Virus record (IMG/VR): IMGVR_UViG_3300011008_000009
Span: 32,001 to 96,000 of that record
Length of the DNA: 64,000 nt
Reading direction: 5' to 3' (one strand)
Origin: a virus
Both the position numbers and the translations under genes were made by a program. The notes under the pieces were generated by a model. That model was not told the DNA's origin. It saw nothing but the letters and a program-made list of their open reading frames with translations, and searched no databases. Below are positions 10,320 to 37,905 of this stretch, in pieces (within the stretch, counting starts at the first letter, position 1; each line of letters opens with the position of its first letter).

Positions 10320-11547
10320 CGGTTTGTCATATATTTCTATATGTCCTGACTATCTTTTACCTTATAGGAACTCCGTTTCGAACTACGTATCAATAGTAGC
10401 CCTACTCCCAGTCTCACCCGGGATAGTCGATACACACATATTTTAGAGTAAATTTTTCCAAGTTGTGCCATTTATGACAGCCCTTATAGAAGTGGGTGTC
10501 ACTTGAGGGTAGGCTTTATAAATTTCAGAATTAGAAATGCCTTCTTTGTGCATTTCTCTTATTTTTAATACATCTTGAGTAGTTAATTTCGCTCGACCGT
10601 TATATTGTCCAGCTCTACGAAGACTAGAATGAATTTTTCTGTTTTCTTCTGTAAAAACTTCTGGCATTACTAGTTTATATCTATTACCATAATAAACATT
10701 CCAAAATGTCATTTCGTCTTTGTATGCCCATTTATAATCTTCGTAAACATCCTTCCAATACTCACCTTTTGCATATCTTTCTCTTAATTTTACCACGTCA
10801 TCATATTCGAGAGGACCGTTAGTGAATTGACCAGCAAACTCTCTATTAAAAGGATATTCTTCAGTGGTAGTTGTGAGATTTTTGTAAGTTATATGATGAT
10901 ATATTTTTCTAAAAGTTTCATATTTAATTTTTTCAGAAAATTGTTCATATAACAAGCAAATAGGAATATTTCGATGGTCTAAGATGTATTGTGCTTCTTC
11001 TTCTGTTAGATTAGCATTATTATTATCAGCTCCAGCTTTACCTTTATAAGTAGGAAAATATTTTCCACCAGGGTCAACATTATATCCATTAGGGACTAAG
11101 CTGTTAAACTCTTTAATATATTGTTCTTCTAGCACAATTGCTTCTTCAATTGAAAGGTTTCTATGTAGCACCTTAAATTCAAAGTTATCCTTTCCATATT
11201 TATGGATAGCTTCTTGAATTACTTGTCGATGTTTAAGGTCTTTAGGATAACTTTTTTCGTTTCCCCATTTTTTTTCTACATTGTTAGTAATACCAATGTA
11301 TATTTTTTGATTAATTAAATTTGTTATTTTATATACATACATATTAACACCTCGCACTTTATTACCCTCATAATAAAGTGGGATTTATGTAACGTCTACT
11401 CTAAAATTTTGGCGCGGGATTACCATATCACTGGGATTATGACTTAGGCTTCCCCGCCGCTATATAGGTACTGTTTACTTACGCTTTCGCTGCCTATATA
11501 ACGCTGCCGATAAGCAGTTAGAAGTTTACGAGCCTAACATTTCGTCA
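10320..11547 (-). mobile_element. group I intron (dnaE intron 1) carrying a GIY-YIG homing endonuclease
   Basis: Exon 1 ends ...GAU GUG AGU|, after U. The intron ends ...ACAAACCG|, after G. The RNA has GUAUCGACUAUCCC (about 10418-10431) and AAAGAUAGUCAGG (about 10345-10357), which can form P7. Confidence 0.7.
10443..11342 (-). CDS. GIY-YIG homing endonuclease
   Basis: MYVYKITNLINQKIYIGITNN...YNVDPGG. GAGGTG lies 5 nt before this ATG. The C-terminus has an HTH-like KIREMHKEGISNSEIYK. Confidence 0.85.
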   Translation of the reverse strand: MYVYKITNLINQKIYIGITNNVEKKWGNEKSYPKDLKHRQVIQEAIHKYGKDNFEFKVLHRNLSIEEAIVLEEQYIKEFNSLVPNGYNVDPGGKYFPTYKGKAGADNNNANLTEEEAQYILDHRNIPICLLYEQFSEKIKYETFRKIYHHITYKNLTTTTEEYPFNREFAGQFTNGPLEYDDVVKLRERYAKGEYWKDVYEDYKWAYKDEMTFWNVYYGNRYKLVMPEVFTEENRKIHSSLRRAGQYNGRAKLTTQDVLKIREMHKEGISNSEIYKAYPQVTPTSIRAVINGTTWKNLL

Positions 11548-13482
11548 ACTCACATCTTCGCACTGGTGTAGATCGAACTGAGTAATAATATCTCCACTTC
11601 TTGTTCTCATAAGTGCAGAATACTCACTAAACGGCTCTTCTACCAATATTACTCCACCTGCATGAGAGCCTACTCCATTAACTAATCCTTCAATTCGCTG
11701 AGCAACTTCCCATACTTTAGGATAATCTTCTGTCATAAGTTTAACAAAAGTTCTGTCGGGTTCTATACCATTTTCTTCATCACCATAAAAGGTCTGACTA
11801 AGAGTTCTGGCAATACCACGTTCAGCTTTTATAAAAGAAGCCAAGTAACTAGCTTCATCTATATCAATTCCTAATCCTCTGCAAGCTGTAAGTATTGCAC
11901 TCTTACTAGCCTCGGTTTTAAGAGTTTGAACTTTACTAATACGGATATCGTTCCAATCCTCTGTATCGTCAGAACTTTTGCGAGAAGCATTATACTTTTC
12001 GCCTAATGCCTTCAACACCGACTGGCGCTTATTTCCTTGAATATCTATATCAATATCCAATACAGATGCACGCTCAGGGTTCAAAAATCTCCAGGGGAAT
12101 GTTGATGTTCTTTCTCTTAACGGGTTAATCTGCGTGATGTCAAGCAAGTAAAGAAGAACAAAACCTACACCAGAACCTCTTCCCGCGCCAACCAGTGTGT
12201 CACCCTCATTCCAAGCTATTTTTACTAATTCACTCGTCTGAAGAAGATAACCTGACCACCGAGTGTTCATCTTTTCCGAAGATACCCACAACGAATTAAG
12301 ACATACATCAATTGCTTTATACATCTCTTCGTTCGCGCGCTCAATCGGGTCTTTCTCAATTGCTTCAACTATTCTACGAGCAAGGTGTCTATCACTATCG
12401 TACTGCGATGTGGCAAACTGCTTTAATAGCTTTATATCGCTGTACTTATCTATAAGTTCCATATCAGGCTCTCTCGTGTCTGACGGAACATAAGGTATGT
12501 GCAAAGGCTTTGTTAAATCATAGTTTTCACACATATCATATATAATTTTTGTGTTTGCAAGTCCACGACTTACCGCTTCGGCGCCGATATTGCTATCCAT
12601 ATATTCGTGAATTTCTTCTGTACTCATAAGATAAGTACTCGCGTAGAAATCCATTACTTCTCTTTCGCCGTCTTGCGATTTGAGAAATGCTTCGTGTATG
12701 GGGCGCTCTTCCTTTTTAAGATAATGTGAGTCGGTAGTTATTATATAAGGTATATACATCTTAAATGTACCTAAGTGTACTAACACCTTATTAACAAACT
12801 GCTGTTCTTCACTTGTCTTTGACGGTTGAAGCTCTAAAAAGAAATTTTCCTTTCCGAATATGGACTGAATATTTTCTATCCAAGAATACAATTCATTCCA
12901 AAATTCACCGCTCCACTCTGGGTCATTTGTTATTTCTGCTCTATGTTTTAATATCCAGCCGTCTATCCACGAGCCAAGACAAGCACTCGAAGCGATTACG
13001 TGACCAGGGTTCGCACCGATTATTTCTTTTAAGTCACTATAATAAGTTGGAACTCTTGTCATTCGTGCCGTTTCAAAACTATTGTTCCAAGCACGAGTTG
13101 ATAACTGACGCAACTGCTTATTTCCTATTTCATCTTTAGCTAATAGAATAAAGTGATAATACTTATCTTCGCCCTTGATGAAGTTCTCTTTACATAGTCC
13201 GTTACGACATAAATAAATTTCGTTTCCAAGTATCAGCTTAAAATTCTTAATACGTTCTTTTTCTTCACCTGTCGCGGCGTTCTTTAGTCTTTTCTGATAA
13301 TGTTTCTGCGCCATTAGGAAACCGCCAATAGTCTCGTGGTCTGTAATGGCTACTCCGTTATGTCCAAGTTCAATTGCATAATCTATAAGATTATCAACCT
13401 TATTAATACAATCCCTTAGACGATAATTACTGTGCTCGGTATGATTATGACAATCTACGAAAAATTCGGGTGTCAATATCAT
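11548..13482 (-). CDS. dnaE: DNA polymerase III alpha (DnaE-type), exon 1 (PHP domain and palm)
   Basis: PHP motif DCHNHTEHSNY...VAITDHE. Ends ...ITQFDLHQCEDVS, equivalent to [13 protein letters not shown] of E. coli DnaE. Confidence 0.85.
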
Positions 13483-13506
13483 CGCCTCCTTTTTCCTTAT
13501 ATTAAT

Positions 13507-13535
13507 ATTATATCATATTTTTTAAAAAAAGTCAA
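13507..13535 (-). promoter_or_regulatory. sigma70/sigmaA-type promoter upstream of dnaE
   Basis: Minus strand reads TTGACT-17 nt (ending TATGA)-TATAAT. Confidence 0.7.
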
Positions 13536-13558
13536 GAGTAGACTTATAGCCTACTCTT
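13534..13558 (-). terminator. hairpin terminator after the recJ-like gene, fused to the dnaE promoter -35
   Basis: aagagtag-9 nt-ctactctt is an 8-bp stem starting at the stop codon. On the minus-strand RNA it is followed by GACUUUUUUU, which is the -35 box plus a T-run. Confidence 0.6.
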
Positions 13559-15320
13559 AGAAATCAAATATTGTACCACCAATTTCGTAGTCTTTTATTA
13601 TAACTTGTGGACTTGTTGTTCCATTCCATTCGTTAATTGCTCCTTCCCCTATGATAGTAATAATAAACTCGTCTCCTGCTTGTCTTAGCTTTTCAATGTC
13701 TTGAGATGCAAAGAACTTAATATAAGTAATACCATTTACTTTAAAACGGAGTGTATCTGAACGGGCGCCGCACACTTGAATATCACTTTGGTTGAGAGAT
13801 AGACCAGTGACGGCTATTAAAGGTGCGTCATTTTTCTGACCCCAAATTCGGTCATCTTTATATACATCAAATATAAAATCACTAATAGTTTCATCTGTAC
13901 TAGGAGCAGCATATTCTACCTCATAGAAATTATCTGAAAAATTAACATCTTTTAGTTTTTCATTTGCATAGTTAAGGAACTTACCAACATTTTTATCGGG
14001 AATACTTACGCCAAAAGCATTTTCGTGACCTTGTGCATATTCAAAGTAGCCACTTTCAATTAAGAAAGAACGTAAATTTTTAAATTCTCCCTTTCCGTCA
14101 TTGCGCGCACTACCACGAAGAAAGCCTTCGTCGTTCTTTCTAACTATCAGCACTGGCTTTTTGTACTTATCAGCCAGCTTCATAGCAACTAAGCCGTTTA
14201 AGGTAGTGGGAAAACTAAAAGTATCATCTAATATTGCAATAATTACAGTATTATCTATTTCTCCCGTACCTTGCAAAAACATATCAATACTATCCATAGC
14301 TCTGGTAACGGAAGTATCTTGTCTATTTTTCGCGTTAGTTCCTTCACGCGCCATTTGATCTGCTAAACGTTCTGTTTCACCTTTTGCTCCACGCTTGGTG
14401 CTAGGAACTACTTTATCGCCGTCTATAAAGGCTCCAAACATTCTCTCTTTTTCATTTGGAGTTCCAACTCTAACGATAGAGTTTATTAATGGAGCAATAA
14501 AGAAACTTACTCCAGTGGGAGAGATGTTATTAGAACGTTTTAGGGAAAAGGATTGTTTACTAACGATAGCTTTTAGAAAGGCATTGTAGATAATATGCAA
14601 TCCATAATAAGAGAAAGCTCTATTCTCAATCTCTCTCATATCCATACAGTCGCCTATAATACCGACCGCCGCCAAATCCATAAGTGTATTGACTATGGGT
14701 GGATTGAAGTCTTCAGATGCCCAATCTGTAATCATTTCCTCATAATACTTACAGAACTGCCAGGTAACCCCTGCTCCAGAAAGAGCCTTATTGGTATAAT
14801 TCTTAGACAACTGATTATTAATGATAACAGTATGCTCGTTATTGAAATAGTAATCTTCATCTATATCATCAACCAAGTGGTGGTCGAGTATTAATATATC
14901 GGCGCCGGCATCGTTGAGAGCCTTTTGCTGCTCAAAATCATTGCTACCAGCATCGGGTACGATAATCAATCCATAATTTTTATTTATTAAGTTATCTATT
15001 TGATCCTCTAAGCCGTGTTGCTTGCCTTCGTGAATATAATAATCTATATCAATTTCATAATAGCTTTTTAAAAAATTATATATAATGGCGGCGCTAGTAT
15101 AGCCATCGCAGTCACAATCTACAATAAGAGCAATCTTAGAATGATTATGAATGTGTTTTTCTAATAGCTTATATCCTCTCTCAATATTATCTAAATTAAG
15201 AGGTGGCTCGATGTCGCTCATTAAAGGGTTGGCATATCTTTCGGGGTCTTCAATTCCCCTTTCTTTTAGTATTGTATTTAAATAATCTTGCTTAATTAAC
15301 GATTTGACCTTATATTGCAT
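13557..15320 (-). CDS. DHH-family phosphoesterase, RecJ-like ssDNA exonuclease
   Basis: DHH motifs VDCDCDGYTS, VPDAGSND and ILILDHH. Confidence 0.75.
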   Translation of the reverse strand: MQYKVKSLIKQDYLNTILKERGIEDPERYANPLMSDIEPPLNLDNIERGYKLLEKHIHNHSKIALIVDCDCDGYTSAAIIYNFLKSYYEIDIDYYIHEGKQHGLEDQIDNLINKNYGLIIVPDAGSNDFEQQKALNDAGADILILDHHLVDDIDEDYYFNNEHTVIINNQLSKNYTNKALSGAGVTWQFCKYYEEMITDWASEDFNPPIVNTLMDLAAVGIIGDCMDMREIENRAFSYYGLHIIYNAFLKAIVSKQSFSLKRSNNISPTGVSFFIAPLINSIVRVGTPNEKERMFGAFIDGDKVVPSTKRGAKGETERLADQMAREGTNAKNRQDTSVTRAMDSIDMFLQGTGEIDNTVIIAILDDTFSFPTTLNGLVAMKLADKYKKPVLIVRKNDEGFLRGSARNDGKGEFKNLRSFLIESGYFEYAQGHENAFGVSIPDKNVGKFLNYANEKLKDVNFSDNFYEVEYAAPSTDETISDFIFDVYKDDRIWGQKNDAPLIAVTGLSLNQSDIQVCGARSDTLRFKVNGITYIKFFASQDIEKLRQAGDEFIITIIGEGAINEWNGTTSPQVIIKDYEIGGTIFDF

Positions 15321-26071: not shown

Positions 26072-26253
26072 TTATTCCTTTATTTCTGAAAAGTCAATAT
26101 TATTAAACACGTATTCAGTTCTCGGTTCTACTCTACTGCCCATTAGCTGTTCAAGCATTTCAATACCTTCTTCCGAATACTCAATACGTTCAAGACGCTG
26201 ATATTCAGGACTAAACATTGATTTTCGCGCCGTTGCGGCAGGCAATTCACCTA
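26072..26253 (-). CDS. type II topoisomerase B subunit, exon 3 (not in the ORF track)
   Basis: My translation is (L)GELPAATARKSMFSPEYQRLERIEYSEEGIEMLEQLMGSRVEPRTEYVFNNIDFSEIKE*. This corresponds to the GyrB C-terminal KGLGEM...LMG..VE.R..FI region. Confidence 0.8.
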
Positions 26254-27212
26254 CGTATTACTCAATTATTACTAATTGTACTGACCATTTCTTCACATAT
26301 AGTGCATACCGTTTCCAATTGCGTATCAATAGCAATCGTACTCTCCAACAACGGAGATGGTCGATACAGGTTAATTATTCTTTTCTAAGTTCTTAATCCT
26401 TTTAAGATTAGTAGCTTTAAAGCTGTCGTAACTGGAATATATATTTTTAAAGTCTTCGTAAATGGTTCTTAAACTTTCACCATTTGCATATCTTAATCTA
26501 ATGCTTTCAAACTGTTGGTCACTAATTTTTGCTTTTGGGTTCTTTTCTCCTGGGTTGCTATAACTTTTAGAATTATTTCTATGCCACTCTCTATTTTCTT
26601 GTGTATTTAATTCGGGTAAAATATTTTTCCAAGTTTGCCAAGTATATACTTTTTTAAAACCGGTTTTTTCTATTTTATCCTGATATTCATAATACATTTC
26701 TCTTGTAGAGATAGTCTTGGATGCCCACAATAATCTTATTTCTATAACATCTTTTTCTGTTAATTTGTGCTTAGGATGTTTTTCGCCGTGAGTATCAACT
26801 AAATCTCCACCCGGAGTAGCATTATATCCTTTTTTAAAAGTATTGTAATAATTTATCCAATAAATTTCTTTTTCTTTTAGCTCTTCTGGTTTACATTCTT
26901 CTAAAACTTCCCATTTGAAATTTTCTAAACCATATTTTCTGAACGCTTGATACAATACTTTATCATACTCTTTATTATCACTATCAAAAGCTCTTTCTCT
27001 ATGAGATTTCCAGCGATTTTCAATATTTATAGATAACCCAATATAAGCATTATTATTAATTAAATTTGTAATTTTGTATATACCAGTCATACATTTCCTC
27101 CAAGAATAATTCTTCCCACGAGATTATCCAACTTGGGACTACCCTCGTTAGCAGTCAATGAAGACTACCCCGCCGATAAGCGGAAAAGTATGTAAGGACC
27201 AGACTACCTCTT
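26254..27212 (-). mobile_element. group I intron (topo-II B intron 2) carrying a GIY-YIG homing endonuclease
   Basis: Exon 2 ends AAA GGA U|, after U. The intron ends ...GUAAUACG|, after G. Joining gives RAKG-L-GELP, the KGLGE motif. GUAUCGACCAU and AGAAAUGGUCAG elements flank the 3' core. Confidence 0.75.
26371..27090 (-). CDS. GIY-YIG homing endonuclease
   Basis: MTGIYKITNLINNNAYIGLS...RWKSH...YNATPGG. GGAGG precedes the ATG. Confidence 0.85.
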   Translation of the reverse strand: MTGIYKITNLINNNAYIGLSINIENRWKSHRERAFDSDNKEYDKVLYQAFRKYGLENFKWEVLEECKPEELKEKEIYWINYYNTFKKGYNATPGGDLVDTHGEKHPKHKLTEKDVIEIRLLWASKTISTREMYYEYQDKIEKTGFKKVYTWQTWKNILPELNTQENREWHRNNSKSYSNPGEKNPKAKISDQQFESIRLRYANGESLRTIYEDFKNIYSSYDSFKATNLKRIKNLEKNN

Positions 27213-27411
27213 ATCCTTTTGCTCTCGTTACCTCTCCCTTTACTGTTGAACGAACCTTATTAAACTCCTCATCAGTAAAGTAGTAACTTTCTACTCCTTT
27301 ATTTTCTACTATATAAAGAGGAGATTTAAGCCAATACAGTCTACCTTCTTTTATAAAGTCTGGCGCAAGATACCATAAGTTTGCCATAATTAACAATCCT
27401 ATGTGACTTCC
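27213..27411 (-). CDS. type II topoisomerase B subunit, exon 2
   Basis: GSHIGLLIMANLWYL...LYWLKSPLY corresponds to GyrB DGSHIRTLLLTFFYR...YIAQPPLY. Confidence 0.8.
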
Positions 27412-28446
27412 CACGTTACCCATTATTTCTAATGGCGCTGACTATCTGTTACTCGTTAAAATGAGAATACTCTTTCCAATCACGTACCAATAGTGACTGT
27501 ACTTCCCTTCCGGGGAATAGTCGATACAGGCTTCATTTATTAACCCAAACCTTTTGTTTTTTCTTGTATATTGGCAGGTCTTTATAGGTGCGACCCCACA
27601 ATATTTGTTGTAATGTATTGTAACTGCATCTATCTTTAAAATCATTATAGATACTTCTTGCATCTTCATTAACGTACCGTTCTCGCATTTTTAAGACTTC
27701 TTCACTTGTAAATTTTGCGCTATCTGAATTAGAGCCATCTGTTGCGTGATATTTATAGAAATTTTTATTTTCCTCGGTATAAACTTCCATTTTAATATCT
27801 TTCCAAGTGGTTCCGTCCCAAATGGATGCGAAGCTGCTAAAACTTATTCTGTCTTGAAATTGTTTATATACTTCACGGCGTCGCATATGGTTGCCATAAC
27901 ACTCTCTAATATAAGCCACATCTTCATTAGTGAGTTTCGTTCTTCCATTATTTTCACCACGACTATTTCCGCCGCCTTCATTGCAATTATAACCAAATCC
28001 TTTATAAGTATTATAATATGCAATCCAGTATTTTTCTCGTTCATCTAATTGTTCTAATGAACATTCTTCTATAATTTCAAAATCAAAAGCATCAACGCCA
28101 TATTTCTTAATGGCTATTTCAATCGGTATATCAATTTTGTTTTTATGTTCGGAAAATCTTCTCTCTATATCATTACTTTGACCAATATATGATTTTCCAT
28201 TTTCTTTCTTAGTTATTTTGTATATGCCTATCATTGCGGCACCTCCACAATTATTAGGCTTGGGTCAATTCTGATTCCCACGGGATCTGCATGCCCACGA
28301 GGGGTTTAGCTTCTCTTATCACCATAACCTTTCGGTTTAGTTGCCCGTTAGCCTTCTATAATAATGTAGGGAATATGTAAACCCTCTCTACATTTTTCAG
28401 AAGACCCCGCTGGTTAGCGGTAAAGTATTTACGGACAGAGTTACTT
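27412..28446 (-). mobile_element. group I intron (topo-II B intron 1) carrying a GIY-YIG homing endonuclease
   Basis: Exon 1 ends GAU UCG GAU|, after U. The intron ends ...GGUAACGUG|, after G. Joining gives TDADSD-GSHI, the Toprim DxDxDGxHI motif. GUAUCGACUAUUCC and ACAGAUAGUCAG elements are present. Confidence 0.8.
27533..28234 (-). CDS. GIY-YIG homing endonuclease
   Basis: MIGIYKITKKENGKSYIGQSNDIERRFSEH...YNCNEGG. GGAGGTG precedes the ATG. Confidence 0.85.
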   Translation of the reverse strand: MIGIYKITKKENGKSYIGQSNDIERRFSEHKNKIDIPIEIAIKKYGVDAFDFEIIEECSLEQLDEREKYWIAYYNTYKGFGYNCNEGGGNSRGENNGRTKLTNEDVAYIRECYGNHMRRREVYKQFQDRISFSSFASIWDGTTWKDIKMEVYTEENKNFYKYHATDGSNSDSAKFTSEEVLKMRERYVNEDARSIYNDFKDRCSYNTLQQILWGRTYKDLPIYKKKQKVWVNK

Positions 28447-29937
28447 ATCCGAATCTGCGTCAGTTGCTATGGCAATTTTACCATAATGAAGTTTTTTGCT
28501 ATCATACTTTCCAGGCAGTATGTTCATGGCGCTTAACAGTAACTTTATCTCTTCGTTCTTAAATATTTTTTCTTCATCATTGGACAACGAATTAATCATC
28601 TTACCACGAATTGCCATAAGACCATACTTAGTTATATCTCTTGCCCGCGACAGTCCGCCTAACGCCGAGTCTCCCTCACAGATAAGTAAGGTACTGTCCT
28701 GTCCAAGAAACTCTGCGTCTTTCAGCTTATCGCTAGCAAACACTTTTTTCTTCTGATTTTTCTCGATATCCTTTGTAGCATCAAGCACAGCCTGTCTTGC
28801 CTTTTCAGCCGCCTTTTCAGCTTTCTGAATCTTATTCATCATTTCGATGATACTATTAAATTCACCACTATGTTTAAGCGCAAATTCATCAAGTCCAGAC
28901 TTAAAAGCCGTACTAGCTAAAGTTCTAAGATTAGGATTATTTATTTTAGACTTGGTCTGATTAGCAAAAGAGGGGTTAACTACTTTGCAGTTTATCGCAT
29001 AAACCAGACCCTTACGAATGATTTCGGGATCGAACTCCTTCTTGGACAAACGCTTCATAGAGGTTGTAAAAGTAGTTTTCGCGCCTGTAATGGGAGAGCC
29101 ACCCTCGCTGCAAAAAAGTCCGTTGACAAATACATAGCTGGCACCCGGACCATCTGTCCACATAAAAGCTACTTCTACTTCATCAGTATCATCTTTTGCT
29201 GTTGTAATGATTGGCGCAGACATCAATGGTTTTTTGACATTGTCCTTAATAAAATCGCCTATACCATTTTCGGAATAAAACTCTACTGTTTTTCCAGTAT
29301 TAACCAAACCAACTTTAAAATGTACACCTTTATTAAGATAAGAAATATTTCTTATTTCATTACATATTCTATCATAAGAAAAGCCGTCAGTCATTAATTT
29401 AAATACTTCGGGGTCTGGAATAAACTCTACCTTTGTGCCAGTATGGGCGCTTGTATTGGGTATTTCTTCATAATTTACGAGTATTCCTTTTTCAAAGGTA
29501 GCAGTAGCCTGCTTCTTTTCTCGATAGGAAGTAACGACAAAATTTTTAGAAGACATACATACCGCGGTTCCGCCTATACCATTCAATCCAGAAGAATTTT
29601 TGTATGCATTTTTGTCAAATTTTCCTCCAGTATGACTTTCGGTATAAATAGACACCAGAATATTTCTTCCGTCTTTAATACCAAAAGGTACTCCTCGTCC
29701 GTCGTCTATAATTGTAATTTTATTGTTTTGTTCATCAACAGCTATGGTTATTAAATTACCATATCCTGCCAATGCTTCATCTGTAGAATTGTTGACTATT
29801 TCTTTAAATGCTTGATAAATACCATCGGTATCATCAGAACCGAGATACATCTGTATCCTTGAACGCATAGCTTCACGCGTTTCTAAGTGTCTTATGCTAT
29901 CTATACCATAATTATCCATTCGCATTCTCCTTTTCAC
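28447..29937 (-). CDS. type II topoisomerase B subunit, exon 1 (GHKL ATPase, transducer, start of Toprim)
   Basis: EIVNNSTDEA, IDDGRGVP, GLNGIGGTA, then CEGDSALGG...IAIATDADSD. Confidence 0.85.
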
Positions 29938-30003: not shown

Positions 30004-30345
30004 TTAAAGTATATTCAGATACTTAAGTAAGTTTCTATACTCTCTGTCTAAAAGCAGCGAATCATCTTCGGTATCATCTTTCTTGAAAGTTCCTTTTACG
30101 CTATATTTTATAATAGGAATTTCACCGTACTTTTCAAAATACTTTTCGGAAAGATTTGCTGCCTTATCTATGAGTTCCTGTATCTCTTTCTGCTTACTTT
30201 CTTTCTCTGCCTTCAGCGCTGCCTTTCTCTTGTCTTCCGCCGCCTTTTCAGCATTGGCTATACAATCGCGTTCGCACTGGTTTCTTTCAGCTACGGTGTT
30301 GTATCTCTTACCACATATTCCACAAGTATAAATCTGTTCTCTCAT
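30004..30345 (-). CDS. small Zn-finger / coiled-coil protein
   Basis: CGICGKRY...ERNQCERDC followed by a K/E-rich helix. Confidence 0.55.
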   Translation of the reverse strand: MREQIYTCGICGKRYNTVAERNQCERDCIANAEKAAEDKRKAALKAEKESKQKEIQELIDKAANLSEKYFEKYGEIPIIKYSVKGTFKKDDTEDDSLLLDREYRNLLKYLNIL

Positions 30346-31517
30346 TTTTTAATACCTCTCTTTAATAATATTATTGTAGTGAAACCTATTGTATATAATC
30401 CAAGTAATACCCAAAGTACCGGCATATATGCTCCCGTAACACCAAATACAATAGAACTAATATTGTTACCTACTAATCCTGCTATTCCCCAAGCAGTTAA
30501 TGACAGTCCGTGTATTGCACTAAGTCTGTTCATTCCATAGATATCAGATAACAATGTTGGCATATTACTAAAGCCAGCGCCATAAGTGCTAGAAATAATG
30601 CATAGACCAATAATAGTAACTATAATATTCTGTGTTAATAGCATAAGTACCATTGTGGCTACGGATATTAGAAAAATTACTAAGTAGATGTTCACTCTAC
30701 TATTAAGTTTATCAGAAATTGCGGAAAAAGTCAAACGTCCGAGTCCATTGCAAATTCCCATAATAGCAACTGCTGTTGCCGCGAGTCCAGGACCACAATT
30801 AATTGATACTAGTAAAGGAGATGCAATAGATATTAACGCTAGACCACACGCAATATTTAAAAAGAACATTAACCAAATTTTTCTAAATTTGCTGTCCTTA
30901 AACATAGTTAAAACTTTAAAATCATCTTTTGTAGTTTGTTCTACATAATTAGGCGGTCGCTTAATTAGTATAGAAGCTAATATTAAAGGTATTACTGATA
31001 TGGCGGCAAAACCTAAAAATGTAACAGTTAGATTAGTTGTTTCAAGTAAAAAGGTAAGTATAGGAGTAGCTATTGTACTTGCAAAACCAAAGCCCATAAT
31101 TGCTATTCCAGTTGCCACACCTTTGTGTTCAGTAAACCATAGCATTAGGTTTTTAATAGGTGTTAAATATCCTATGCCAAGTCCACATCCCATAAGAACA
31201 CCATATCCTAAGTATATAAGCCATATGGATTGCAACCAAGAGCCGAGCGCCGTAACGAGCAGACCGCCGCAGAAGAACAGCACACATAATCGAGAGCTTA
31301 GCTTAATATTGTGTTCAACTAATTTACCCAAGAACGCTGCCGACATTCCAAGAAAGAATATAGCTAAACTAAATGCGAACTGTACCCAAGCCACTGACAT
31401 TCCGACAGCCGCCGTTACGGGGTTTACGAGTAAACTCCAGGCATATACCGAGCCTATTGTACAGTGGATACATAAAGCTGGAATGGCGCCATGTATCCAT
31501 TTTCCTAATTTTCCCAT
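30342..31517 (-). CDS. MFS transporter, oxalate/formate antiporter (OFA)-like family
   Basis: About 12 hydrophobic segments. SVYAWSLLVNP and GLGIGYLTP...WFTEHKGVATGIAIMGFGFAS resemble OFA-family signatures. The start at MGKLGKW is preceded by AAGGAG and overlaps the nrdG stop. Confidence 0.75.
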   Translation of the reverse strand: MGKLGKWIHGAIPALCIHCTIGSVYAWSLLVNPVTAAVGMSVAWVQFAFSLAIFFLGMSAAFLGKLVEHNIKLSSRLCVLFFCGGLLVTALGSWLQSIWLIYLGYGVLMGCGLGIGYLTPIKNLMLWFTEHKGVATGIAIMGFGFASTIATPILTFLLETTNLTVTFLGFAAISVIPLILASILIKRPPNYVEQTTKDDFKVLTMFKDSKFRKIWLMFFLNIACGLALISIASPLLVSINCGPGLAATAVAIMGICNGLGRLTFSAISDKLNSRVNIYLVIFLISVATMVLMLLTQNIIVTIIGLCIISSTYGAGFSNMPTLLSDIYGMNRLSAIHGLSLTAWGIAGLVGNNISSIVFGVTGAYMPVLWVLLGLYTIGFTTIILLKRGIKK

Positions 31518-31999
31518 AAAACAACTTCTCCTTTTAATAGTGATTCTTGCACATCTATAATGCATTGATTGCTTGAACCTCTAAATTTTAGTGTAATATC
31601 TCGCTTATCTATCTCAAAAGGTCCGTCAACCAAAACGTCTATATATTGTAGTATTCTTAAATTTTTAGATAGTTGTTCAAAAGTAAAACCAGTATAGCAC
31701 CAAATAGTTTTGTCTTTATACTCATTCTTTATATCCTGTAAAAAAGATAATAATGTTTCATTACTACTATGATATATAGGGTCGCCGCCGGTTAGTGTTA
31801 AACCTTTAATGTAAGGATTTTTTAATAACTGTTTAATATTATTAATTTCAGCTTCTCCAAAAGGCTTTCCTGCATTAAAGTCCCAACTTTCTGGATTATG
31901 ACAACCTTTACAATGGTGGTCACAGCCAGAGAGCCAGAGGGTTACTCTGACTCCTGGACCATTAGCTACATCAAATTCATCTATTGCTAAATAATTCAT
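31505..31999 (-). CDS. nrdG: anaerobic ribonucleotide reductase activating protein (radical SAM)
   Basis: GCDHHCKGCHN is the CxxxCxxC cluster. GLTLTGGDP. It starts 2 nt after the nrdD stop. Confidence 0.85.
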   Translation of the reverse strand: MNYLAIDEFDVANGPGVRVTLWLSGCDHHCKGCHNPESWDFNAGKPFGEAEINNIKQLLKNPYIKGLTLTGGDPIYHSSNETLLSFLQDIKNEYKDKTIWCYTGFTFEQLSKNLRILQYIDVLVDGPFEIDKRDITLKFRGSSNQCIIDVQESLLKGEVVLWEN

Positions 32000-32001
32000 A
32001 C

Positions 32002-32493
32002 TTACCTCTTCCAGTTCGGTAATTCTTTTGAGTGCTTATATCTCATTTCAACTTCTTGCTGTTTACCTTTATTAAAAGCAGTTGTATAATTTCCTGTTAA
32101 ATAACCTGTTACTCGTCTTAATCTGCTAATGTCTGCGCTTCCACACTGTGGACAAACCTCATTAATTTCATCAGTATAACCGCATTGATTACACATATCA
32201 TTAGGAACATTAATAGCAAAATAAGGAACGTCCTTATCCATAGCGTAATTTACTAATGTTTCAAGTGCTTCGAGGTTATTTTTTACTGTACTTTCTAACT
32301 CTACATAAGTTATGCATCCAGCATTTGAATAATTAACGAGCTGTGCTTCTATATCTATTTTCTCAAAAGGATTTAATTTTTTCCATACCGGAACGTGCAT
32401 AGAGTTAGTGAAGAACTCTTTATCAGAAACATTCTTTATAATTCCATACTTTTCTTGGAATTTCTTCATCGCGGTATAGCATAAATTCTCAGC
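32002..32493 (-). CDS. nrdD: class III (anaerobic) ribonucleotide reductase NrdD, exon 3
   Basis: The frame is open upstream of the track ATG and reads AENLCYTAMKKFQEKYG. A Zn-ribbon CNQCGY...CPQCG follows, then the glycyl-radical motif RRVTGYL. Confidence 0.85.
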   Translation of the reverse strand, partial: AENLCYTAMKKFQEKYGIIKNVSDKEFFTNSMHVPVWKKLNPFEKIDIEAQLVNYSNAGCITYVELESTVKNNLEALETLVNYAMDKDVPYFAINVPNDMCNQCGYTDEINEVCPQCGSADISRLRRVTGYLTGNYTTAFNKGKQQEVEMRYKHSKELPNWKR

Positions 32494-33445
32494 CGTTTTT
32501 ACCCTCGGTTTCCCGATATTTGATAGGGGACTAGACTATATTATCATCTTATTATCTTTCTCATATAATAAGAGCCTTATCTTTTGCTTTATCAGCTACT
32601 CTACTCGCTTCTTCACTTTAGATTTTAACTAAAGCTATGCTTTCGATAGTCGTTAGAGAACAAAACCTTTTTCATCATATTCTTTAAGAAATCTATAATA
32701 GTAACCTTTTCTTGGTTTAGTTTTTAGTTTGTGGTTGCATTGGTACAAGATACCAGTTTTTGTCATACCAGTTTCTCTTGTTGCTTCACCAACCGAACCA
32801 TATTTTTTTATAAGATTAAAATTAAGGTCGAATTGACATACTGCTATAGATTGATTATCATCCCAACTCTTAGCATTTACTGCTAGCCCATCTCTATAAG
32901 CGCCTTGAGTGTTTTCTTGGACCGTGCCCCATTTGAGATTTAAATAATTGTTATTAGTTTTATCATTATCTAAATGTAACACTATTGATTGATTGTTAGG
33001 ATTTGGAACATAGGCCTCGGCAACCAATATATGTACTCTTCTTTGTCTTTGTCCAGTTGGATAAGTTATATTGCAATAACAATATCCATTACTTTTATTA
33101 ACAAAAACTGACTTTTTAAACATTTTATTATTGCCGTAATCTTTGTAAATTTGACCGTCGGGAGTAATATAATCTGTATTACTGTCTTTTATTAATCTTA
33201 GTTCTTCGGTTATTAAGTTTTTGTCTATTAGTTGATTTTCCAATTTTCTTTTAGCCATTTTTATCACCTCACTTTAAAGTGAAAGGTAACTTATTATACT
33301 CTAAAGAAAATCTGTGATAAGGTTTTATCCTACGGGATTAGCCTGCCTTACGGTTTAGCCTCTCTTACCATCTTATTACGATTGCCCGTTTAATAAGGTT
33401 ATTTTTTCACATAATCACTTATGCGACACCCAATCTGAGAGTTTT
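32494..33445 (-). mobile_element. group I intron (nrdD intron 2) carrying an HNH homing endonuclease
   Basis: Exon 2 ends ACA CCU|, after U. The intron ends ...GUAAAAACG|, after G. Joining gives YYTP-AENLC, equivalent to E. coli YSTPSENLC. CUAACGACUAUCGAAAGC and GAUAAUAUAGUCUAG elements are present. Confidence 0.8.
32653..33258 (-). CDS. HNH homing endonuclease
   Basis: HILVAEAYV...VLHLDNDKTNNNYLNLKWGTVQEN is the HNH core. The C-terminus has an IENR/HTH-like GSVGEATRETGMTKTGI. The start at MAKRK follows GAGGTGA. Confidence 0.8.
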   Translation of the reverse strand: MAKRKLENQLIDKNLITEELRLIKDSNTDYITPDGQIYKDYGNNKMFKKSVFVNKSNGYCYCNITYPTGQRQRRVHILVAEAYVPNPNNQSIVLHLDNDKTNNNYLNLKWGTVQENTQGAYRDGLAVNAKSWDDNQSIAVCQFDLNFNLIKKYGSVGEATRETGMTKTGILYQCNHKLKTKPRKGYYYRFLKEYDEKGFVL

Positions 33446-33967
33446 AGGTGTATAATATACTCCAAAATTCAGCTTATACTTTTGCTTAAATTCTGCACAT
33501 CTAGTTTTGAATAACTGTTCAATGCGCTTAGCCAGCTCCATTCCTTCGGGTTCGGTATGGTCTTTACCAATTAATATCTGTAAAGTTTCTGCCAATCCTA
33601 ACTGACCAATAGCAAGTGTTCCGTGCTTTAACGCACTACGAATACCCTCTTCGGGTTTGTAGCCAAGCATAAGACCGTTTTCGTACATAAAGGTCGCACT
33701 TTCTTCGTTTTGAGAACAAATCCACTCAAAGCGCTCTATTAATGTATCTTTTGCTTCGCTTATCTTTTTATCAAGTAATTGTAGGAACAGAGAGGAAATG
33801 TCATTGTCATATTCATAATTACACAATTCTTTAGCCATCATAGCAATAGTTGGCATAATAATGGTAACAGGACAAATATTTCCACGTCCGTCTTTAGTTT
33901 GCGGGTTAACGCCTTCTTCCGCATTAATATCGGCGCCATTGTATGTACGACAACCCCTTGTCGTAAT
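33446..33967 (-). CDS. nrdD: class III ribonucleotide reductase NrdD, exon 2
   Basis: ITTRGCRTYNG...DGRGNICPVTIIMP corresponds to E. coli SPMGCRSFL...GRNNLGVISLNLP. Confidence 0.8.
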
Positions 33968-34801
33968 CATTAGACTATGTCATCTTCCAATATTGTAATA
34001 ACCTTTATTGGAAGCCTATCGTTTTGGGGACAATGGACCCCTACTCTACTCACTTCTTCATATTAGTATTTTTCTAATATTATGCTTTCGATAGTCGTTG
34101 AGCTTTTAATATTAATAAGTATTACTTAAAATATCTACGAACACCAATTTTTCCTAAATCTTTATGGTGCCAATCTTTATAAAACCAACCTCTATTAATT
34201 GAAGCCTGAATGGTATTTCTTGACATAGGATAATCTATCAATAAATCTTCTCTACTAGAATATTCCTTGATAAGACTTCCAGTACTATAATCAAACACTT
34301 GATAGTAGGCATCTCCAGAACGGTGAGGTACATGAACGTGACGTAAATCGTTTCTGAAAGCGTGTAAATCATTTTCACTTCTTGTTACCCATTCTAAGTT
34401 ATCAGCCGCATTGTTTAATTTATTACCATCTTTGTGATTTACAACTAATTCTTCTTGGTAGCCATCACAAAAGTGATACGCAACCAAACGATGTATAAAA
34501 AAACGTTTCTTTACCGGAGCATATAATACTACTCGTCTATAACCACAAGTATTTATATCTCCTTTAAGTATTTGTTTGGTTTTATAATTTCGCACATTTC
34601 CTAAATTACTAACTTCATAATAGGTTTCATAATTTTTAATTGGTTTCCAAATTTCTTTCATACGCCCAATTCCTCCTTAAGAATATGGCTTTTATTAATA
34701 TATTTAGCACACGAGTAACGTCTTAGACGCTTCCTCCGTTTAGATAGGTTTATTTATACTACATTACTGTAGCAGACCACAGGTTGGTTTATGGTCGATA
34801 C
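33968..34801 (-). mobile_element. group I intron (nrdD intron 1) carrying an HNH homing endonuclease
   Basis: The RNA contains CUAUCUAAACGGAGG...CGUGUGCUAAAU (T4 td-like P3-P6 region), CUCAACGACUAUCGAAAGC and GAAGAUGACAUAGUCUAAUG| at the 3' end. The proposed join is KTY|ITTRGCR, with U before the 5' splice site and G before the 3' splice site. The 5' junction is less certain, by a few nt. Confidence 0.7.
34122..34661 (-). CDS. HNH homing endonuclease (NUMOD4-like N-terminus)
   Basis: EIWKPIKNYETYYEVSNLGNVRN...HRLVAYHF...VNHKDGNKLNNAADNLEWVTRSEN. AAGGAGG precedes the ATG. Confidence 0.85.
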   Translation of the reverse strand: MKEIWKPIKNYETYYEVSNLGNVRNYKTKQILKGDINTCGYRRVVLYAPVKKRFFIHRLVAYHFCDGYQEELVVNHKDGNKLNNAADNLEWVTRSENDLHAFRNDLRHVHVPHRSGDAYYQVFDYSTGSLIKEYSSREDLLIDYPMSRNTIQASINRGWFYKDWHHKDLGKIGVRRYFK

Positions 34802-37003
34802 ATAGGTTTTCGGATCCTCTCTGTTGTATCCAGCATTAGTGGACCAGTCTACATTAGCATAATTAGGATAAAGTCTTTTCGCAGTTGACCGTAATGCTAA
34901 TTTAAATAAATCATAATTTGGGTCTCCAGGCTTTCTATTAACTCCTATCATACACTGGAAAATTCCACAAGGAAATACAGGTGTTTTATGAAGTTTACCT
35001 ACACCCTTAATAGAACCGTGTAAAAGAGCCTCGGTCACCATTCTACCTTCGGTAAGTGTACAAGTACCATAGTTGATAGAAGTAAAAGGAAGCTGATTTC
35101 CTGCTCTACTTTGAAGAGTATTTAGGTTGTGATACATACTCTCAGCAGCTTGTTCGGTTTCTTTTATGGTGTGTTTAAGAGCGTACTTATACGCCTTATC
35201 ACAGCTATAAACTTTTCTATCATCTATACTAAATTTATCAATAGCTTCATAAGGAGGAAGCTGATATTTTGTAAGTAAATTTTCTTTTTCATCTTCCAAG
35301 TCAACATCTTCTATAAATGCAAGTGCATCTATATAGTGTTTATAAAAACTCTTTCTTACAAAAGGAACCATTGTCCAATCTAAGTGCGAAGCGGATACTC
35401 CACCGAACTGCTGAAGGCTCTGTAATTGGAAGATAACAGCTAAAAGTTGAAAAGCTGTATTAATAGACTGAGGCGGGCGCACGTCTGTCTGTCTAGTATT
35501 AAATCCTTCTTTAAATAGTTTGTCAAAGGGAATTGTAAGGCAATTACCAGTTGGAATACCATTCTCAAGAACAAAAGCATGTTCATCTTCTACATTCAAA
35601 CACCATACATCGTGTAATTCGGTGTCCTCTTGAGTTATATCCTTTACATACCAATTGAATTTATTTGAATGTTGTCCAAAAAATTGATAATTTTTAGTGT
35701 ATCCTCTAACAGTATAGTTGGTTTCTTGCCCAGTCTTATCTTTTATTGAATTTACATACAAACCAGCAACTGGGAAATATTCTTCCACAAAATCACATAA
35801 TTCTTTGCTTGTAAATTGGATGCTATAAATAGGTTTTCCCGTAGTAGCGGAAACGCTATGAGTTCCGTCAGCATCGTACAAACCGTGGATAAAACTAATT
35901 AGACATTCCAATGGTAGATTGGTGAAATCTGGAATGGTTTTGTCATATTTAATACCTGTAATTTCCGGCTCTTGTGAAGAACAATTTAAACCATATCCTA
36001 TTTCTTGGAAACGATATAAATATTTCGCTTTATCCTTACATAATTTTACTTTAGTGAAATTTGATTTATAATATTTCTTTTCTTTTTTAGAATATCTTGT
36101 TTCAATAATTCCGTCCCCCATAATAAAACCATAGCACCAATATTCTTTTCCGAGTAAACTTAAAGATTCAAAATCAAAATCTTCCCAAAACCACGGAGAG
36201 TCTAAAAGTTTATCATTAATAGACAATCCTTCTTGGAAGTCCCCGTCTATATTTATCCACCTGTGGTCTTCTGTTGATTTTATGGTTATTTCTGTCCTAT
36301 TCTTTTTTAAAGTATAAGACAATAATTTTTGTTTTCCATGGTAGTTTACAGTTGCTTTCCTCCAAACTCCACTTGGAGTTAGCACAGTAACGATATCCCC
36401 GTCTTTAAAATTACTAAAAGCCTTAACTCCTTCAGAGGTTATAAATCTTGTAGAGGGGTCGAAACAGTTATGCGAACCAACTGCGTAATCAGTTAAATCG
36501 TGTATGTAAATGATATTGTCTATATGATTACGGCGCGAAGTCTCTGACATATAATCTTCCAATGCTATTTTCTTCATCAGCAGATCAGTTACTTCACCCT
36601 TTCTACCATTAAAAGACTTTTCATCTACGTTAGCGTTTTGGTGTTGAGGGTCTGCCGCCGTTAATTTCTTCTTAACGTCCTTCATTAAAGAAGCATATCT
36701 ATCTCTTGCTAAAGCGTGACGATAGCGATAGGTAATGAAGTTTTTAGCCATTATCTGGTCATACTTCATTAACTCTTGTTCTATAATATCTTGAACATCT
36801 TCTATGAAAACTTGCTCACCATATTTATCTGCTACTATTTGTGTGATTTCTTCTGTCATTTTCCGCAAATCTTTTGAGAAATCTTTTGTTGAGCATTCGG
36901 GATAGGTGTCGAGCGCGGCATTGGTGAGAGCATTGTAAATTTTACTTGGGTTAAAAGATACTTTACTTCCATTTCTTTTGATTGCATATTTTGTTGTACT
37001 CAT
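34802..37003 (-). CDS. nrdD: class III ribonucleotide reductase NrdD, exon 1 (ATP-cone and N-terminal barrel), interrupted in frame by an intein
   Basis: ATP-cone YAIKRNGSKVSFNPSKI. ...YIHDLTDYAVGSHN[intein]CLTIPFDKL. The track ORF tail after ...KTY (34754-34801) is read-through into the intron. Confidence 0.85.
35543..36466 (-). mobile_element. intein (308 aa) with a LAGLIDADG endonuclease domain inside NrdD
   Basis: Starts CFDPSTRFITSEG (block A). STEDHRW is block B. YGFIMGDGI and IHGLYDADGT are the LAGLIDADG motifs. Ends FVLENGIPTGN, followed by extein Cys. Confidence 0.85.
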
Positions 37004-37021
37004 TAATATTCTCCTTATATG

Positions 37022-37052
37022 AAAAAATCAAGAGATTATTTCTAATCTCTTG
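37022..37052 (-). terminator. rho-independent terminator immediately upstream of nrdD
   Basis: caagagatt-6 nt-aatctcttg is a 9-bp stem followed on the minus strand by UUUUUU. Confidence 0.7.
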
Positions 37053-37059
37053 TCGAAAA

Positions 37060-37461
37060 TTATTTTACATCCATATCCATCATTATTTCAAAATACTCAT
37101 CAACGTGATGATTGCCGTGAACATCATGATAATCTTGATGTAACTCAACCAAATCTTTTTTATCGGCTACTGTTATGTATCCTCGTGCAGAACTTCTATC
37201 ATAAATGGTCATTATTGAATGTCCTAGCTTAGCTCGTTCTCTCTTTTCTGAGTTGTTTAGTTTTTCAACTAAATTAGTTAAGCTATCGTTGATAGGTTTC
37301 AGTTGTTCATTAAATTCATCTTTAGTTATTGTTATAATCCATTCCTTTAGCCATTGCTTAGGTTTTTTAAACACTAAAGAAATTAAAGCAACCAGAGCCA
37401 TAATAGCACTACAAACGGAGCCGATAGTAATAATAGTTGTAATTATTGGTTCCATACTCAC
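37060..37461 (-). CDS. membrane-anchored hypothetical protein
   Basis: N-terminal hydrophobic helix IITTIITIGSVCSAIMALVALISLVF. Confidence 0.6.
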   Translation of the reverse strand: MSMEPIITTIITIGSVCSAIMALVALISLVFKKPKQWLKEWIITITKDEFNEQLKPINDSLTNLVEKLNNSEKRERAKLGHSIMTIYDRSSARGYITVADKKDLVELHQDYHDVHGNHHVDEYFEIMMDMDVK

Positions 37462-37518
37462 CCTCCTATTGTTTCTGTCAAAAAATAAGTAAAAGGGCTT
37501 ATAAAGAACTCCAATTTT

Positions 37519-37905
37519 TTACTTCGGCGGCTTCAAGATATAGTTATGACGCTTATCCGTTACTACAAAATGTGGATTAGTAAAAATTTTTTCGTAAGTA
37601 AGATTTTCTATCTCCCAATAAGGTATCCTAATTAATTTGATATTTTTTAACAGACAATAGTGATTTTTCTTTTGGTCATATGCCTGTTGGCGCCGAAATT
37701 CTGATTTTCCGTGTATTGGGTGAAAATGATATTCTCCGTCTACCTCAATGAGACACAATAATAATCCTTTATTATATATAGCAAAATCAAATCTTAGAGG
37801 GGTATTTTTCATACCTGAAAGACCAGGGAAAGTCACTTCTCTTTTATAGCTGACTTTCCCCTTGAGTAAGTTCTCTACTTTCTTTTCATAACTACTTGTC
37901 GCCAT
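37519..37905 (-). CDS. PD-(D/E)XK-type nuclease-like protein (Vsr/DUF559-like core)
   Basis: FDFAIY...LIEVDGEYHF...QKK pattern. Confidence 0.45.
   Translation of the reverse strand: MATSSYEKKVENLLKGKVSYKREVTFPGLSGMKNTPLRFDFAIYNKGLLLCLIEVDGEYHFHPIHGKSEFRRQQAYDQKKNHYCLLKNIKLIRIPYWEIENLTYEKIFTNPHFVVTDKRHNYILKPPK

Follow-up and report, generated by a model that had tools for sequence, protein, structure and literature searches.

The stretch of viral DNA analysed here, hereafter called the window (64,000 nucleotides, positions 32,001 to 96,000 of the IMG/VR record IMGVR_UViG_3300011008_000009), carries an nrdD gene for the large subunit of a class III ribonucleotide reductase (RNR) on its minus strand, at 37003..32002. 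In our reading, to which we give a probability of about 0.88, this nrdD is a single gene colonised three times by independent homing elements, an intein and two group I introns, each at a conserved catalytic motif, and would be spliced to an enzyme of 763 amino acids. Annotated otherwise, the locus would appear as three truncated NrdD fragments and two HNH genes; the correct annotation is one 763-amino acid enzyme given by join 37003..34791, 33956..33446, 32493..32002, with an intein at 36466..35543. The window derives from a large phage genome; related metagenomic contigs measure about 116-170 kb. The closest GenBank isolates to this genome are Thomasclavelia phages, and a megablast search of the locus against GenBank phages gave no match.

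The list of open reading frames (ORFs) together with Pfam searches places nrdD in three NRDD-matching ORFs, which cover the NRDD model colinearly (model positions 53-255, 260-414 and 426-562). Two ORFs matching HNH_3 sit between these pieces, the first of them also matching NUMOD4. The locus is composed as follows:

36467..37003, minus strand: nrdD exon 1, N-extein part, residues 1-179, with the ATP-cone and the start of NRDD, ending in ...GSHN
35543..36466, minus strand: intein of 308 amino acids, in frame, from Cys1 to Thr-Gly-Asn308, with a LAGLIDADG domain, directly before Cys180
34791..35542, minus strand: nrdD exon 1, C-extein part, residues 180-430, the final codon (AU|) being split by intron 1
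33957..34790, minus strand: group I intron 1, 834 nucleotides, subgroup IA2-like, inside the Met codon of MGCR, terminal G at 33957
34122..34661, minus strand: HNH ORF of intron 1, 179 amino acids, Pfam NUMOD4 (1.2e-15) and HNH_3 (2.9e-11)
33446..33956, minus strand: nrdD exon 2, from the third base of the Met430 codon through Pro600, holding the MGCR (thiyl-radical) cysteine
32494..33445, minus strand: group I intron 2, 952 nucleotides, subgroup IA2-like, between the Pro600 and Ala601 codons, terminal G at 32494
32653..33258, minus strand: HNH ORF of intron 2, 201 amino acids from an ATG (204 from an upstream GTG), Pfam HNH_3 (2.5e-08)
32002..32493, minus strand: nrdD exon 3, residues 601-763 and the stop codon, Pfam NRDD 426-562 and Gly_radical
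31505..31999, minus strand: nrdG, the radical S-adenosylmethionine activase of NrdD, directly downstream of nrdD, Pfam Fer4_12 (1.9e-50) and Radical_SAM

Excision of the intein and both introns leaves exons totalling 2,292 nucleotides including the stop codon, which encode 763 amino acids; the 664 amino acids and 1,992 nucleotides given in a preliminary description of this DNA, made from the sequence alone, were incorrect. That description had proposed aligning the fully processed product with NrdD, and the alignment is full-length: identity to uninterrupted homologues of 765 residues is 88-90% over 100% of the length (77% for one homologue of 763 residues; protein search), and no gap occurs at any junction among 13 homologues. 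The N-extein part matches the Pfam ATP-cone (6.2e-16) as well as NRDD and is colinear with homologues P0001-P0008, and the spliced protein aligns end to end with the solved NrdD structure 8p23 (E 1.5e-107). Exon 3 encodes the glycyl-radical domain (RRVTGYL) and a CxxC...CxxC zinc ribbon, so that, with Cys180 and the MGCR cysteine (Cys432), all the catalytic motifs are retained. The class III features are likewise all found, namely ATP-cone, NRDD barrel, glycyl-radical domain, active-site cysteines, zinc ribbon and an adjacent nrdG, the nrdD-nrdG order being common to the window and to the related contigs L001, L002 and L147. In an alignment with T4 NrdD, the residue that follows the intein (+1 cysteine, Cys180) corresponds to Cys79 and the MGCR cysteine to Cys290, which we take to be the two active-site cysteines of the T4 enzyme in its published structure.

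The boundaries of the elements were observed at the DNA level. L001, a 116-kb contig from ENA that is syntenic with the window and has an uninterrupted nrdD, served as the reference. A blastn comparison of the window with L001 gives four blocks (37497..36465, 35546..34791, 33963..33446 and 32493..31959), and the breaks against its nrdD fall exactly at 36466/35543, 34791/33956 and 33446/32493. L001 is contiguous over the intron 2 site, its positions 7806/7807 corresponding to window 33446/32493, and the alignment with L002 picks up exactly at window 33956, the start of exon 2. Exon 1 ends at T34791 and exon 2 starts at G33956 by comparison with both contigs; their join is PKTYVSTMGCRTYNG, as in all homologues, and the spliced window DNA TATGTATCGACCAT|GGGTTGTCGT matches L001 TATGTGTCGACCATGGGTTGTAGA. 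The intron 1 join reads PKTYVSTM|GCR with the Met codon split AU|G, and every homologue has PKTY-VSTM-GCRTYNG. Against the 13 homologues and L001 DNA, the joins at the intein (SHN|CLTIPF) and at intron 2 (YYTP|AENLC) are seamless.

Most of the architecture had been drawn correctly beforehand. The preliminary description had an in-frame intein of 308 amino acids (CFDPSTRF...TGN, then Cys) with two LAGLIDADG motifs, which was found at 36466..35543 with an exact junction, and placed intron 2 between GVYYTP and AENLCYTA (33446/32493), which is exact against the same homologues and DNA. The td-like core strings CCUAUCUAAACGG...GUGCUAAAU that it reported in intron 1 are present at about 34748..34700. 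For intron 1 it was right that the MGCR region is interrupted, and wrong on the junction, set at 34801..33968, where blastn and the homologues give 34790..33957. It had flagged the 5' junction of this intron as the least certain, and this proved to be 11 nucleotides off; the length is still 834 nucleotides because both ends shift by 11. The two joins that it considered, PKTY|ITTRGCR (34802/33967) and YV|GCR, were rejected: they contradict both the homologue consensus PKTYVSTMGCR and the DNA breakpoints, and neither yields a P1 helix of 6 bp together with P10.

Both introns fold into a group I core with the following helices:

34796..34791 with 34780..34775, minus strand: intron 1 P1, GACCAU with GUGGUC, U·G pair at the 5' splice site
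34786..34782, minus strand: intron 1 P10, CAACC with GGUUG of exon 2
34748..34743 with 34020..34015, minus strand: intron 1 P3, CCUAUC with GAUAGG
34096..34091 with 33978..33973, minus strand: intron 1 P7
34014..34006 with 33992..33984, minus strand: intron 1 P8, 9 bp
33451..33446 with 33431..33426, minus strand: intron 2 P1, ACACCU with GGGUGU, U·G pair at the 5' splice site
33439..33435 with 32492..32488, minus strand: intron 2 P10, CUCAG with CUGAG
minus strand, within intron 2: P3, CCUUAU with AUAAGG
32651..32646 with 32539..32534, minus strand: intron 2 P7
minus strand, within intron 2: P8, 8 bp

The 5' splice site of each intron follows the exon U of the U·G pair that closes the 6-bp P1, this pair being invariant, and each intron ends in the terminal G (ωG) of the group, as ...ACAAG| in intron 1 and ...AAACG| in intron 2. 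P10 (5 bp) is formed in both by the sequence just 5' of the P1 guide strand and the first bases of the following exon. The core has P2 hairpins with GNRA tetraloops, P7 as GACUAU/AUAGUC, the P3/P7 pseudoknot and P7.1/P7.2 extensions. Two copies of the core motif pair are present in the window and none in 100 shuffles; chance occurrence of the intron core motifs is excluded.

These pairings covary among homologous introns. In the intron 1 family (four sequences), 95.4% of cells are paired, with 15 compensatory pairs against 7.1±1.6 after shuffling and 0-2 after sliding; in the intron 2 family the figures are 98.2% and 10 compensatory pairs against 3.3±1.5 shuffled. Both families lie above every shuffle and slid control. 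The changes are located in P1, P2, P3, P7.1, P8 and P10. The counts exclude P4, P5, P6a and P7.2 of intron 1, where the MAFFT alignment has indels, and P5 and P6a show compensatory changes by eye. The pairs that bind the exons covary as well, synonymous exon changes being matched in the guide sequence: P1 goes from G-C to A-U in L014 and from A-U to U-A in L002, and P10 of L147 (UUCGG/CCGAA) has two compensatory pairs. Maintenance of the helices, P1 and P10 included, by compensatory change would be expected only under selection for splicing.

The same intron type is widespread. A scan of IMG/VR with the shared 3' core pattern CGACUAUCGAAA…GAGUAGAGUA matched at least 120 stretches, often two or three per contig, and 70 of them align with P7 invariant and P7.1 and P8 heavily covarying. 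A covariance model (CM R1) was built from those 70 sequences, leaving the window out; it spans P7, P7.1, the P7.2 region, P3', P8 and P7'. CM R1 finds intron 1 with 95.2 bits (E 1.5e-17, at 34103..33970) and intron 2 with 70.9 bits (E 1.8e-12), and it also matches the T4 introns of nrdD (52 bits), td (41) and nrdB (30). The viral contigs with the 3' core pattern, at least 120 in number (L027-L146), suggest that this family of phage group I introns is large.

These structures bear on a different explanation of the locus, in which the HNH genes are free-standing between nrdD fragments, no ribozyme exists and the conserved flanks are regulatory sequence of the endonuclease genes. It has precedent, as mobC and mobE flank T4 nrd genes, and it would accord with scores that stay under the Rfam gathering threshold (given below), but we consider it very unlikely. 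The conserved non-coding parts on either side of each ORF form P1 to P10 with a covarying P3/P7 pseudoknot, L147 has a copy of intron 1 at the same site with no ORF in it, the same 3' core model finds the proven T4 ribozymes, and removing exactly the predicted introns restores the frame and the consensus protein.

The HNH proteins of the two introns had been described beforehand as different endonucleases, and so they are: both match HNH_3, at 43.3 bits for the first ORF and 33.9 for the second (cut-off 24.8), and both belong to phrog_59 (the second at 7.6e-29), with a mutual identity of 27%. The intron 1 ORF is looped out of P6a, has its own ribosome-binding site (AAGGAGG) and matches I-HmuI (PDB 1U3E) at E 1.6e-26 over residues 5-99, which include the entire ββα-metal core. 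The intron 2 ORF has GAGGTGA as a ribosome-binding site upstream of its start, its stop codon directly adjoins the 5' strand of P7, its match to I-HmuI is weak (E 0.012, residues 58-190) and it is 87.6% identical to its counterpart in L002.

By eye, a palindrome (UCACUUUAAAGUGA, 33282..33256, minus strand) can be seen to share bases with GAGGUGA, the ribosome-binding site of the intron 2 ORF. It could sequester this site, recalling I-TevI, whose translation in T4 is regulated.

The intein is absent from the uninterrupted homologues, and its removal restores SHNCLTIPF in comparison with the 13 homologues and L001 DNA. It has the splicing residues Cys1, Thr65-x-x-His68 (block B), Asn308 and the +1 Cys, and the LAGLIDADG-type motifs GFIMGDG and GLYDADG. 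An alignment of eight homologues shows conservation of blocks A, B, C, E, F and G, with C1, T65, H68 and both LAGLIDADG aspartates invariant. The seven homologues whose sequence extends to the C-terminus all share the Gly-Ile-Pro-Thr-Gly-Asn|Cys ending, P0127 having Leu-Ser for Ile-Pro, and Thr-Gly-Asn is conserved in cultured phages too. The profile TIGR01443 (intein_Cterm) is passed with 21.6 against a cut-off of 15.6. An AlphaFold (AF2) model of the intein reached a predicted local distance difference test value (pLDDT) of 90.5 and a predicted template modelling score (pTM) of 0.89, and Foldseek related it to PI-SceI (E 7.6e-11), PI-PfuI (TM 0.60), I-DmoI and mini-inteins; the modelled structure is that of a HINT fold split by a double-LAGLIDADG domain. 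Relatives of this intein are few: a collection of 5.8 billion proteins yielded only eight protein clusters, six of them at the same position of NrdD.

From these elements, the following course of expression may be proposed. The primary transcript would fold, with the guide sequence of each intron pairing with both flanking exons (P1 with its U·G, and P10), and guanosine-initiated transesterification would excise both introns to leave an ORF of 3,216 nucleotides. Translation of the spliced mRNA would give a precursor of 1,071 amino acids, from which the intein would excise itself by means of Cys1, TxxH, the terminal Asn and the +1 Cys, and the resulting 763-amino acid NrdD would then be activated by NrdG. 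The endonucleases would cut intron-less and intein-less alleles in co-infections, and the elements would spread by recombinational repair. An intein and two group I introns in one nrdD would therefore make RNA splicing and protein splicing both necessary, a proposal of the preliminary description that the exact excision, the structures and the families support.

A number of observations weigh against this reading. For the window nrdD, RNA splicing, protein splicing and endonuclease activity are inferred from sequence. The sets used for covariation are small (four and three sequences), the P4 register of the window and L014 differs from that of L003 and L147, with P5 uncertain in the alignment, and the seed of CM R1 was gathered by a pattern taken from the introns of the window itself. 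The Rfam model RF00028 (Intron_gpI, gathering threshold 50 bits) gave no match in the whole window at gathering or in the 5.2-kb region at E<=10; a 191-nucleotide search of the 3' half of intron 1 gave a partial match of 15.4 bits, and the ORF-less homologue of intron 1 in L147 partial matches of 21.1 and 19 bits, all below 50. As controls, the T4 nrdD intron, with its contiguous core, scored 105 bits, and those of td (40) and nrdB (36) also fell short of 50; the shortfall of the window introns is probably due to the endonuclease ORF and the long P7.1/P7.2 inserts. Nuclease activity of both HNH proteins is uncertain because neither has the Asp that precedes the catalytic His in I-HmuI: the first has Asn there and the second Leu. 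In the intein, the penultimate His of block G ('HN') was not found, Gly standing in its place throughout the family, and three profiles were below their cut-offs: TIGR01445 (13.1 against 24.5), PF14890, Intein_splicing (17.6 against 35.8) and PF14528, LAGLIDADG_3 (21.2 against 22.5). Active inteins lacking the penultimate His are known.

Some of these points would suit a disrupted relic, in which the mobile elements are real, at least one of them no longer splices and no functional NrdD is made, or else a gene whose fragments are translated separately and assemble non-covalently. The missing penultimate His, the scores below the Rfam threshold, the in-frame, ATG-containing ORF with which exon 2 opens and the internal ATG of exon 3 would agree with an explanation of this kind. 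Split RNR genes that still function are on record, as in Aeromonas phage Aeh1, where NrdA is split by mobE and the fragments assemble non-covalently (PMC3653736). Both versions nonetheless seem improbable to us. The exon pieces are intact, as close to uninterrupted homologues as stated above and with every catalytic motif kept; compensatory changes maintain the intron helices down to P1 and P10; and TGN|C is invariant among the homologous inteins that have a C-terminus, those of cultured phages included. The ORFs of exons 2 and 3 have no recognisable ribosome-binding site, whereas both HNH ORFs have one. A single gene that is spliced at the RNA and protein levels is the reading that we retain.

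The occupancy of nrdD was surveyed in 21 IMG/VR relatives and in ENA contigs, and the elements are present in some and absent from others. Insertions occur at about residues 177-180, 226, 329, 430-432, 600 and 640-680. L002, a 139-kb phage-like contig with flanking DNA 87-91% identical to the window, has intron 2 only, with neither the intein nor intron 1. L147 (ENA ERZ27279228 k141_631405, 170.7 kb) has the same intein and three introns, its sites being 179, 226, 430 and 600. Homologues of intron 1 lie at the same site in L014, L003 (Thomasclavelia phage TR-TP2) and, with no ORF, L147, and homologues of intron 2 in L002, L147 and L013. The HN|C site holds an intein in the window, L020-23 and L147; 9 nucleotides upstream of it, at AVG|MHNC between Gly and Met codons, L013 (1434..1784) has an ORF-less insertion of about 349 nucleotides with a weak match to CM R1 (E 0.015). 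At the MGCR motif, three kinds of element occur: the HNH intron of the window, L003, L014 and L147, which splits the codon AU|G; a different, sunY-like GIY-YIG intron at GGU|UGC, 6 nucleotides downstream; and a LAGLIDADG intein at G|C (MG|CR). The latter two, both no more than 6 nucleotides from the intron 1 site of the window, are located at:

L015, 7233..8166: GIY-YIG intron at GGU|UGC
L016, 6366..7339: GIY-YIG intron at GGU|UGC
L020, 6591..7458: GIY-YIG intron at GGU|UGC
L022, 6756..7876: GIY-YIG intron at GGU|UGC
L017, 7254..8329: LAGLIDADG intein at MG|CR
L018, 93..1168: LAGLIDADG intein at MG|CR

Besides the absence of the intein and intron 1 from L002, two comparisons of identity are signs of mobility. 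Between the window and L014, intron 1 shares 78% identity and the flanking exons 66-68%. Between the window and L002, identity is 88-90% for intron 2 and exon 3 and 73.5% for exon 2, a difference that would fit co-conversion of one flank. Such mosaic identity to L002 along nrdD, and an exact look-up that did not find the exon 1 product in the assembly collection, could also be taken as signs of a chimeric metagenomic contig made of nrdD fragments from different phages. This explanation is hardly credible, since independent contigs repeat the elements (intron 2 in L002; the intein and the introns at 430 and 600 in L147; intron 1 in L014 and L003), the junctions keep the frame with single-base precision, and the synteny shared with L001 and L002 extends on both sides.

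Taking the window nrdD as a genuine, multiply colonised gene, it would be one state of a combinatorial polymorphism with 0 to 4 elements per nrdD. We lean towards the view that the two catalytic-cysteine motifs of NrdD are contested landing sites in this clade of phages of anaerobic habitats, where unrelated selfish elements of different genomes insert only 0-9 nucleotides apart and an occupant would disrupt the recognition sites of its competitors. Across the window and its relatives, homing elements of different classes have repeatedly inserted at the same small set of catalytic-site codons. If this view is true, the polymorphism could be a natural system for the study of competition and mutual exclusion between introns and inteins. 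Few genes are on record as requiring splicing of both RNA and protein, and the window nrdD brings a class III RNR into their number. The three members of the phage intron family that were tested are all below the RF00028 threshold; since the family is abundant (at least 120 in IMG/VR) and below that threshold, CM R1 could improve the calling of phage introns.

A further feature was observed in L147: at 8001..13626, its nrdD exons hold 12 in-frame TAG codons, and those seen at alignment ends line up with Gln or Lys of the window, which suggests that TAG has been reassigned as a sense codon in that phage.

Other genes of the window appear to be interrupted as well. At 6915..13482 (minus strand), a gene for DNA polymerase III alpha (dnaE-like) is apparently split in three too, with PHP and NTPase domains at 11545-13482, a finger domain at 9651-10277 and HHH_6 at 6915-8375. 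A GIY-YIG ORF (10443-11357) lies in the first insertion and a LAGLIDADG ORF (8464-9453) in the second; td/sunY-like core strings (CGACUAUCC…GGGAGUAGGG…, ACGACUAUC) flank these ORFs, and CM R1 has a weak match at 10345..10435 (E 0.033). At 26075..29937 (minus strand), gyrB lies in three pieces, a tblastn search with L001 GyrB matching 29919..28453, 27411..27214 and 26254..26075. The gaps hold GIY-YIG ORFs (27533-28234 and 26371-27090), with a weak CM R1 match at 26280..26369 (E 0.15), and gyrB of L001 has one ORF-less gap of about 310 nucleotides.

Directly downstream of nrdG, at 30342..31520 (minus strand), there is an MFS transporter gene whose product comes nearest, in NCBIfam, to the L-lactate and oxalate/formate antiporter families, at scores below the curated cut-offs. 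L001 has in its place, at 8801..9454, an FNT/FocA-like formate channel, also matched below the curated cut-off. Formate is a known reductant of class III RNRs, so a phage-borne transporter of formate or monocarboxylates that is linked to nrdDG may be functional. The possibility that the MFS gene marks the end of a prophage was rejected, as the gene also occupies this position in L002, within that phage-like contig. On the other side, between the DNA ligase gene and nrdD, an ORF of 128 amino acids (37519..37905, minus strand) matches only the C-terminal part of phrog_559 and phrog_9084, which are homing-endonuclease families, and L001 and L002 carry genes of 127-128 amino acids with no Pfam match at this position; the ORF may be a free-standing or degenerate nuclease-related gene.

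Among known systems, T4 nrdD (sunY) with its I-TevII intron had been cited in the preliminary description as a classic host. The host gene is indeed the same and so is the intron subgroup, IA2 (P7.1/P7.2). The likeness does not extend to the site or the endonuclease: T4 nrdD has a single intron, at the Glu179/Tyr180 codons, equivalent to about residue 317 of the window NrdD; its ORF is of the GIY-YIG type and lies 3' of the ribozyme core, whereas the ORFs of the window are HNH and lie in P6a or before P7; and it has no intein. The T4 nrdD comparison is an analogy only. The T4 td intron, as read from the T4 record, has a layout nearly base-for-base like that of the window introns, and the stop codon of I-TevI abuts P7, as does that of the intron 2 ORF. 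I-HmuI, the HNH nicking endonuclease of the DNA polymerase intron in Bacillus phage SPO1, differs from the window proteins in host gene, target and C-terminal DNA-binding parts.

Known counterparts of the intein are in Morganella phage vB_MmoM_MP1 (NC_031020) and Vibrio phage V6Aob (PV454620), whose homologous NrdD inteins are 33-34% identical to that of the window. They are unannotated, being recorded simply as part of the reductase. A comparison of insertion sites, which had also been suggested beforehand, places them at the same point of nrdD, with an identical ..N|C...TGN|C site. Both phages infect Gammaproteobacteria, MP1 belonging to the Straboviridae (the T4 family), and the stretches of their nrdD read near the intein have no intron.

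Combinations of introns and inteins in RNR genes have been reported before. The bnrdE gene of Bacillus phage SPβ contains one group I intron and one intein (Derbyshire & Belfort 1998, cited in PMC3653736); as the nrdD of the window, it is a large-subunit RNR gene requiring RNA and protein splicing, and it differs in being class Ib (NrdE), in having one intron and not two, and in elements and sites unrelated to those of the window. Three introns and an intein occur in nrdE of Brochothrix phage A9, and two introns in nrdE of Staphylococcus phage Twort, where, as in the window, several selfish elements lie beside conserved catalytic residues of one RNR gene (PMC3653736). These are class Ib genes of SPO1-like phages of Bacillota, with other insertion sites. 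The published interrupted RNR genes also include nrdD of Lactococcus phage 949 and of Clostridium phage c-st (PMC3653736). In the gut 'Jug' jumbo phages (360-402 kb, Bacteroides/Phocaeicola), 95 of 104 genomes have a broken-up nrdD, with as many as four pieces separated by group I introns, endonuclease genes and Intein_splicing proteins, and metatranscriptome reads back the splicing (PMC12880540). The Jug introns average about 206 nucleotides and are mostly ORF-less (PMC12880540). The arrangement in the window is not unique, and it is another example of a pattern already described in phages.

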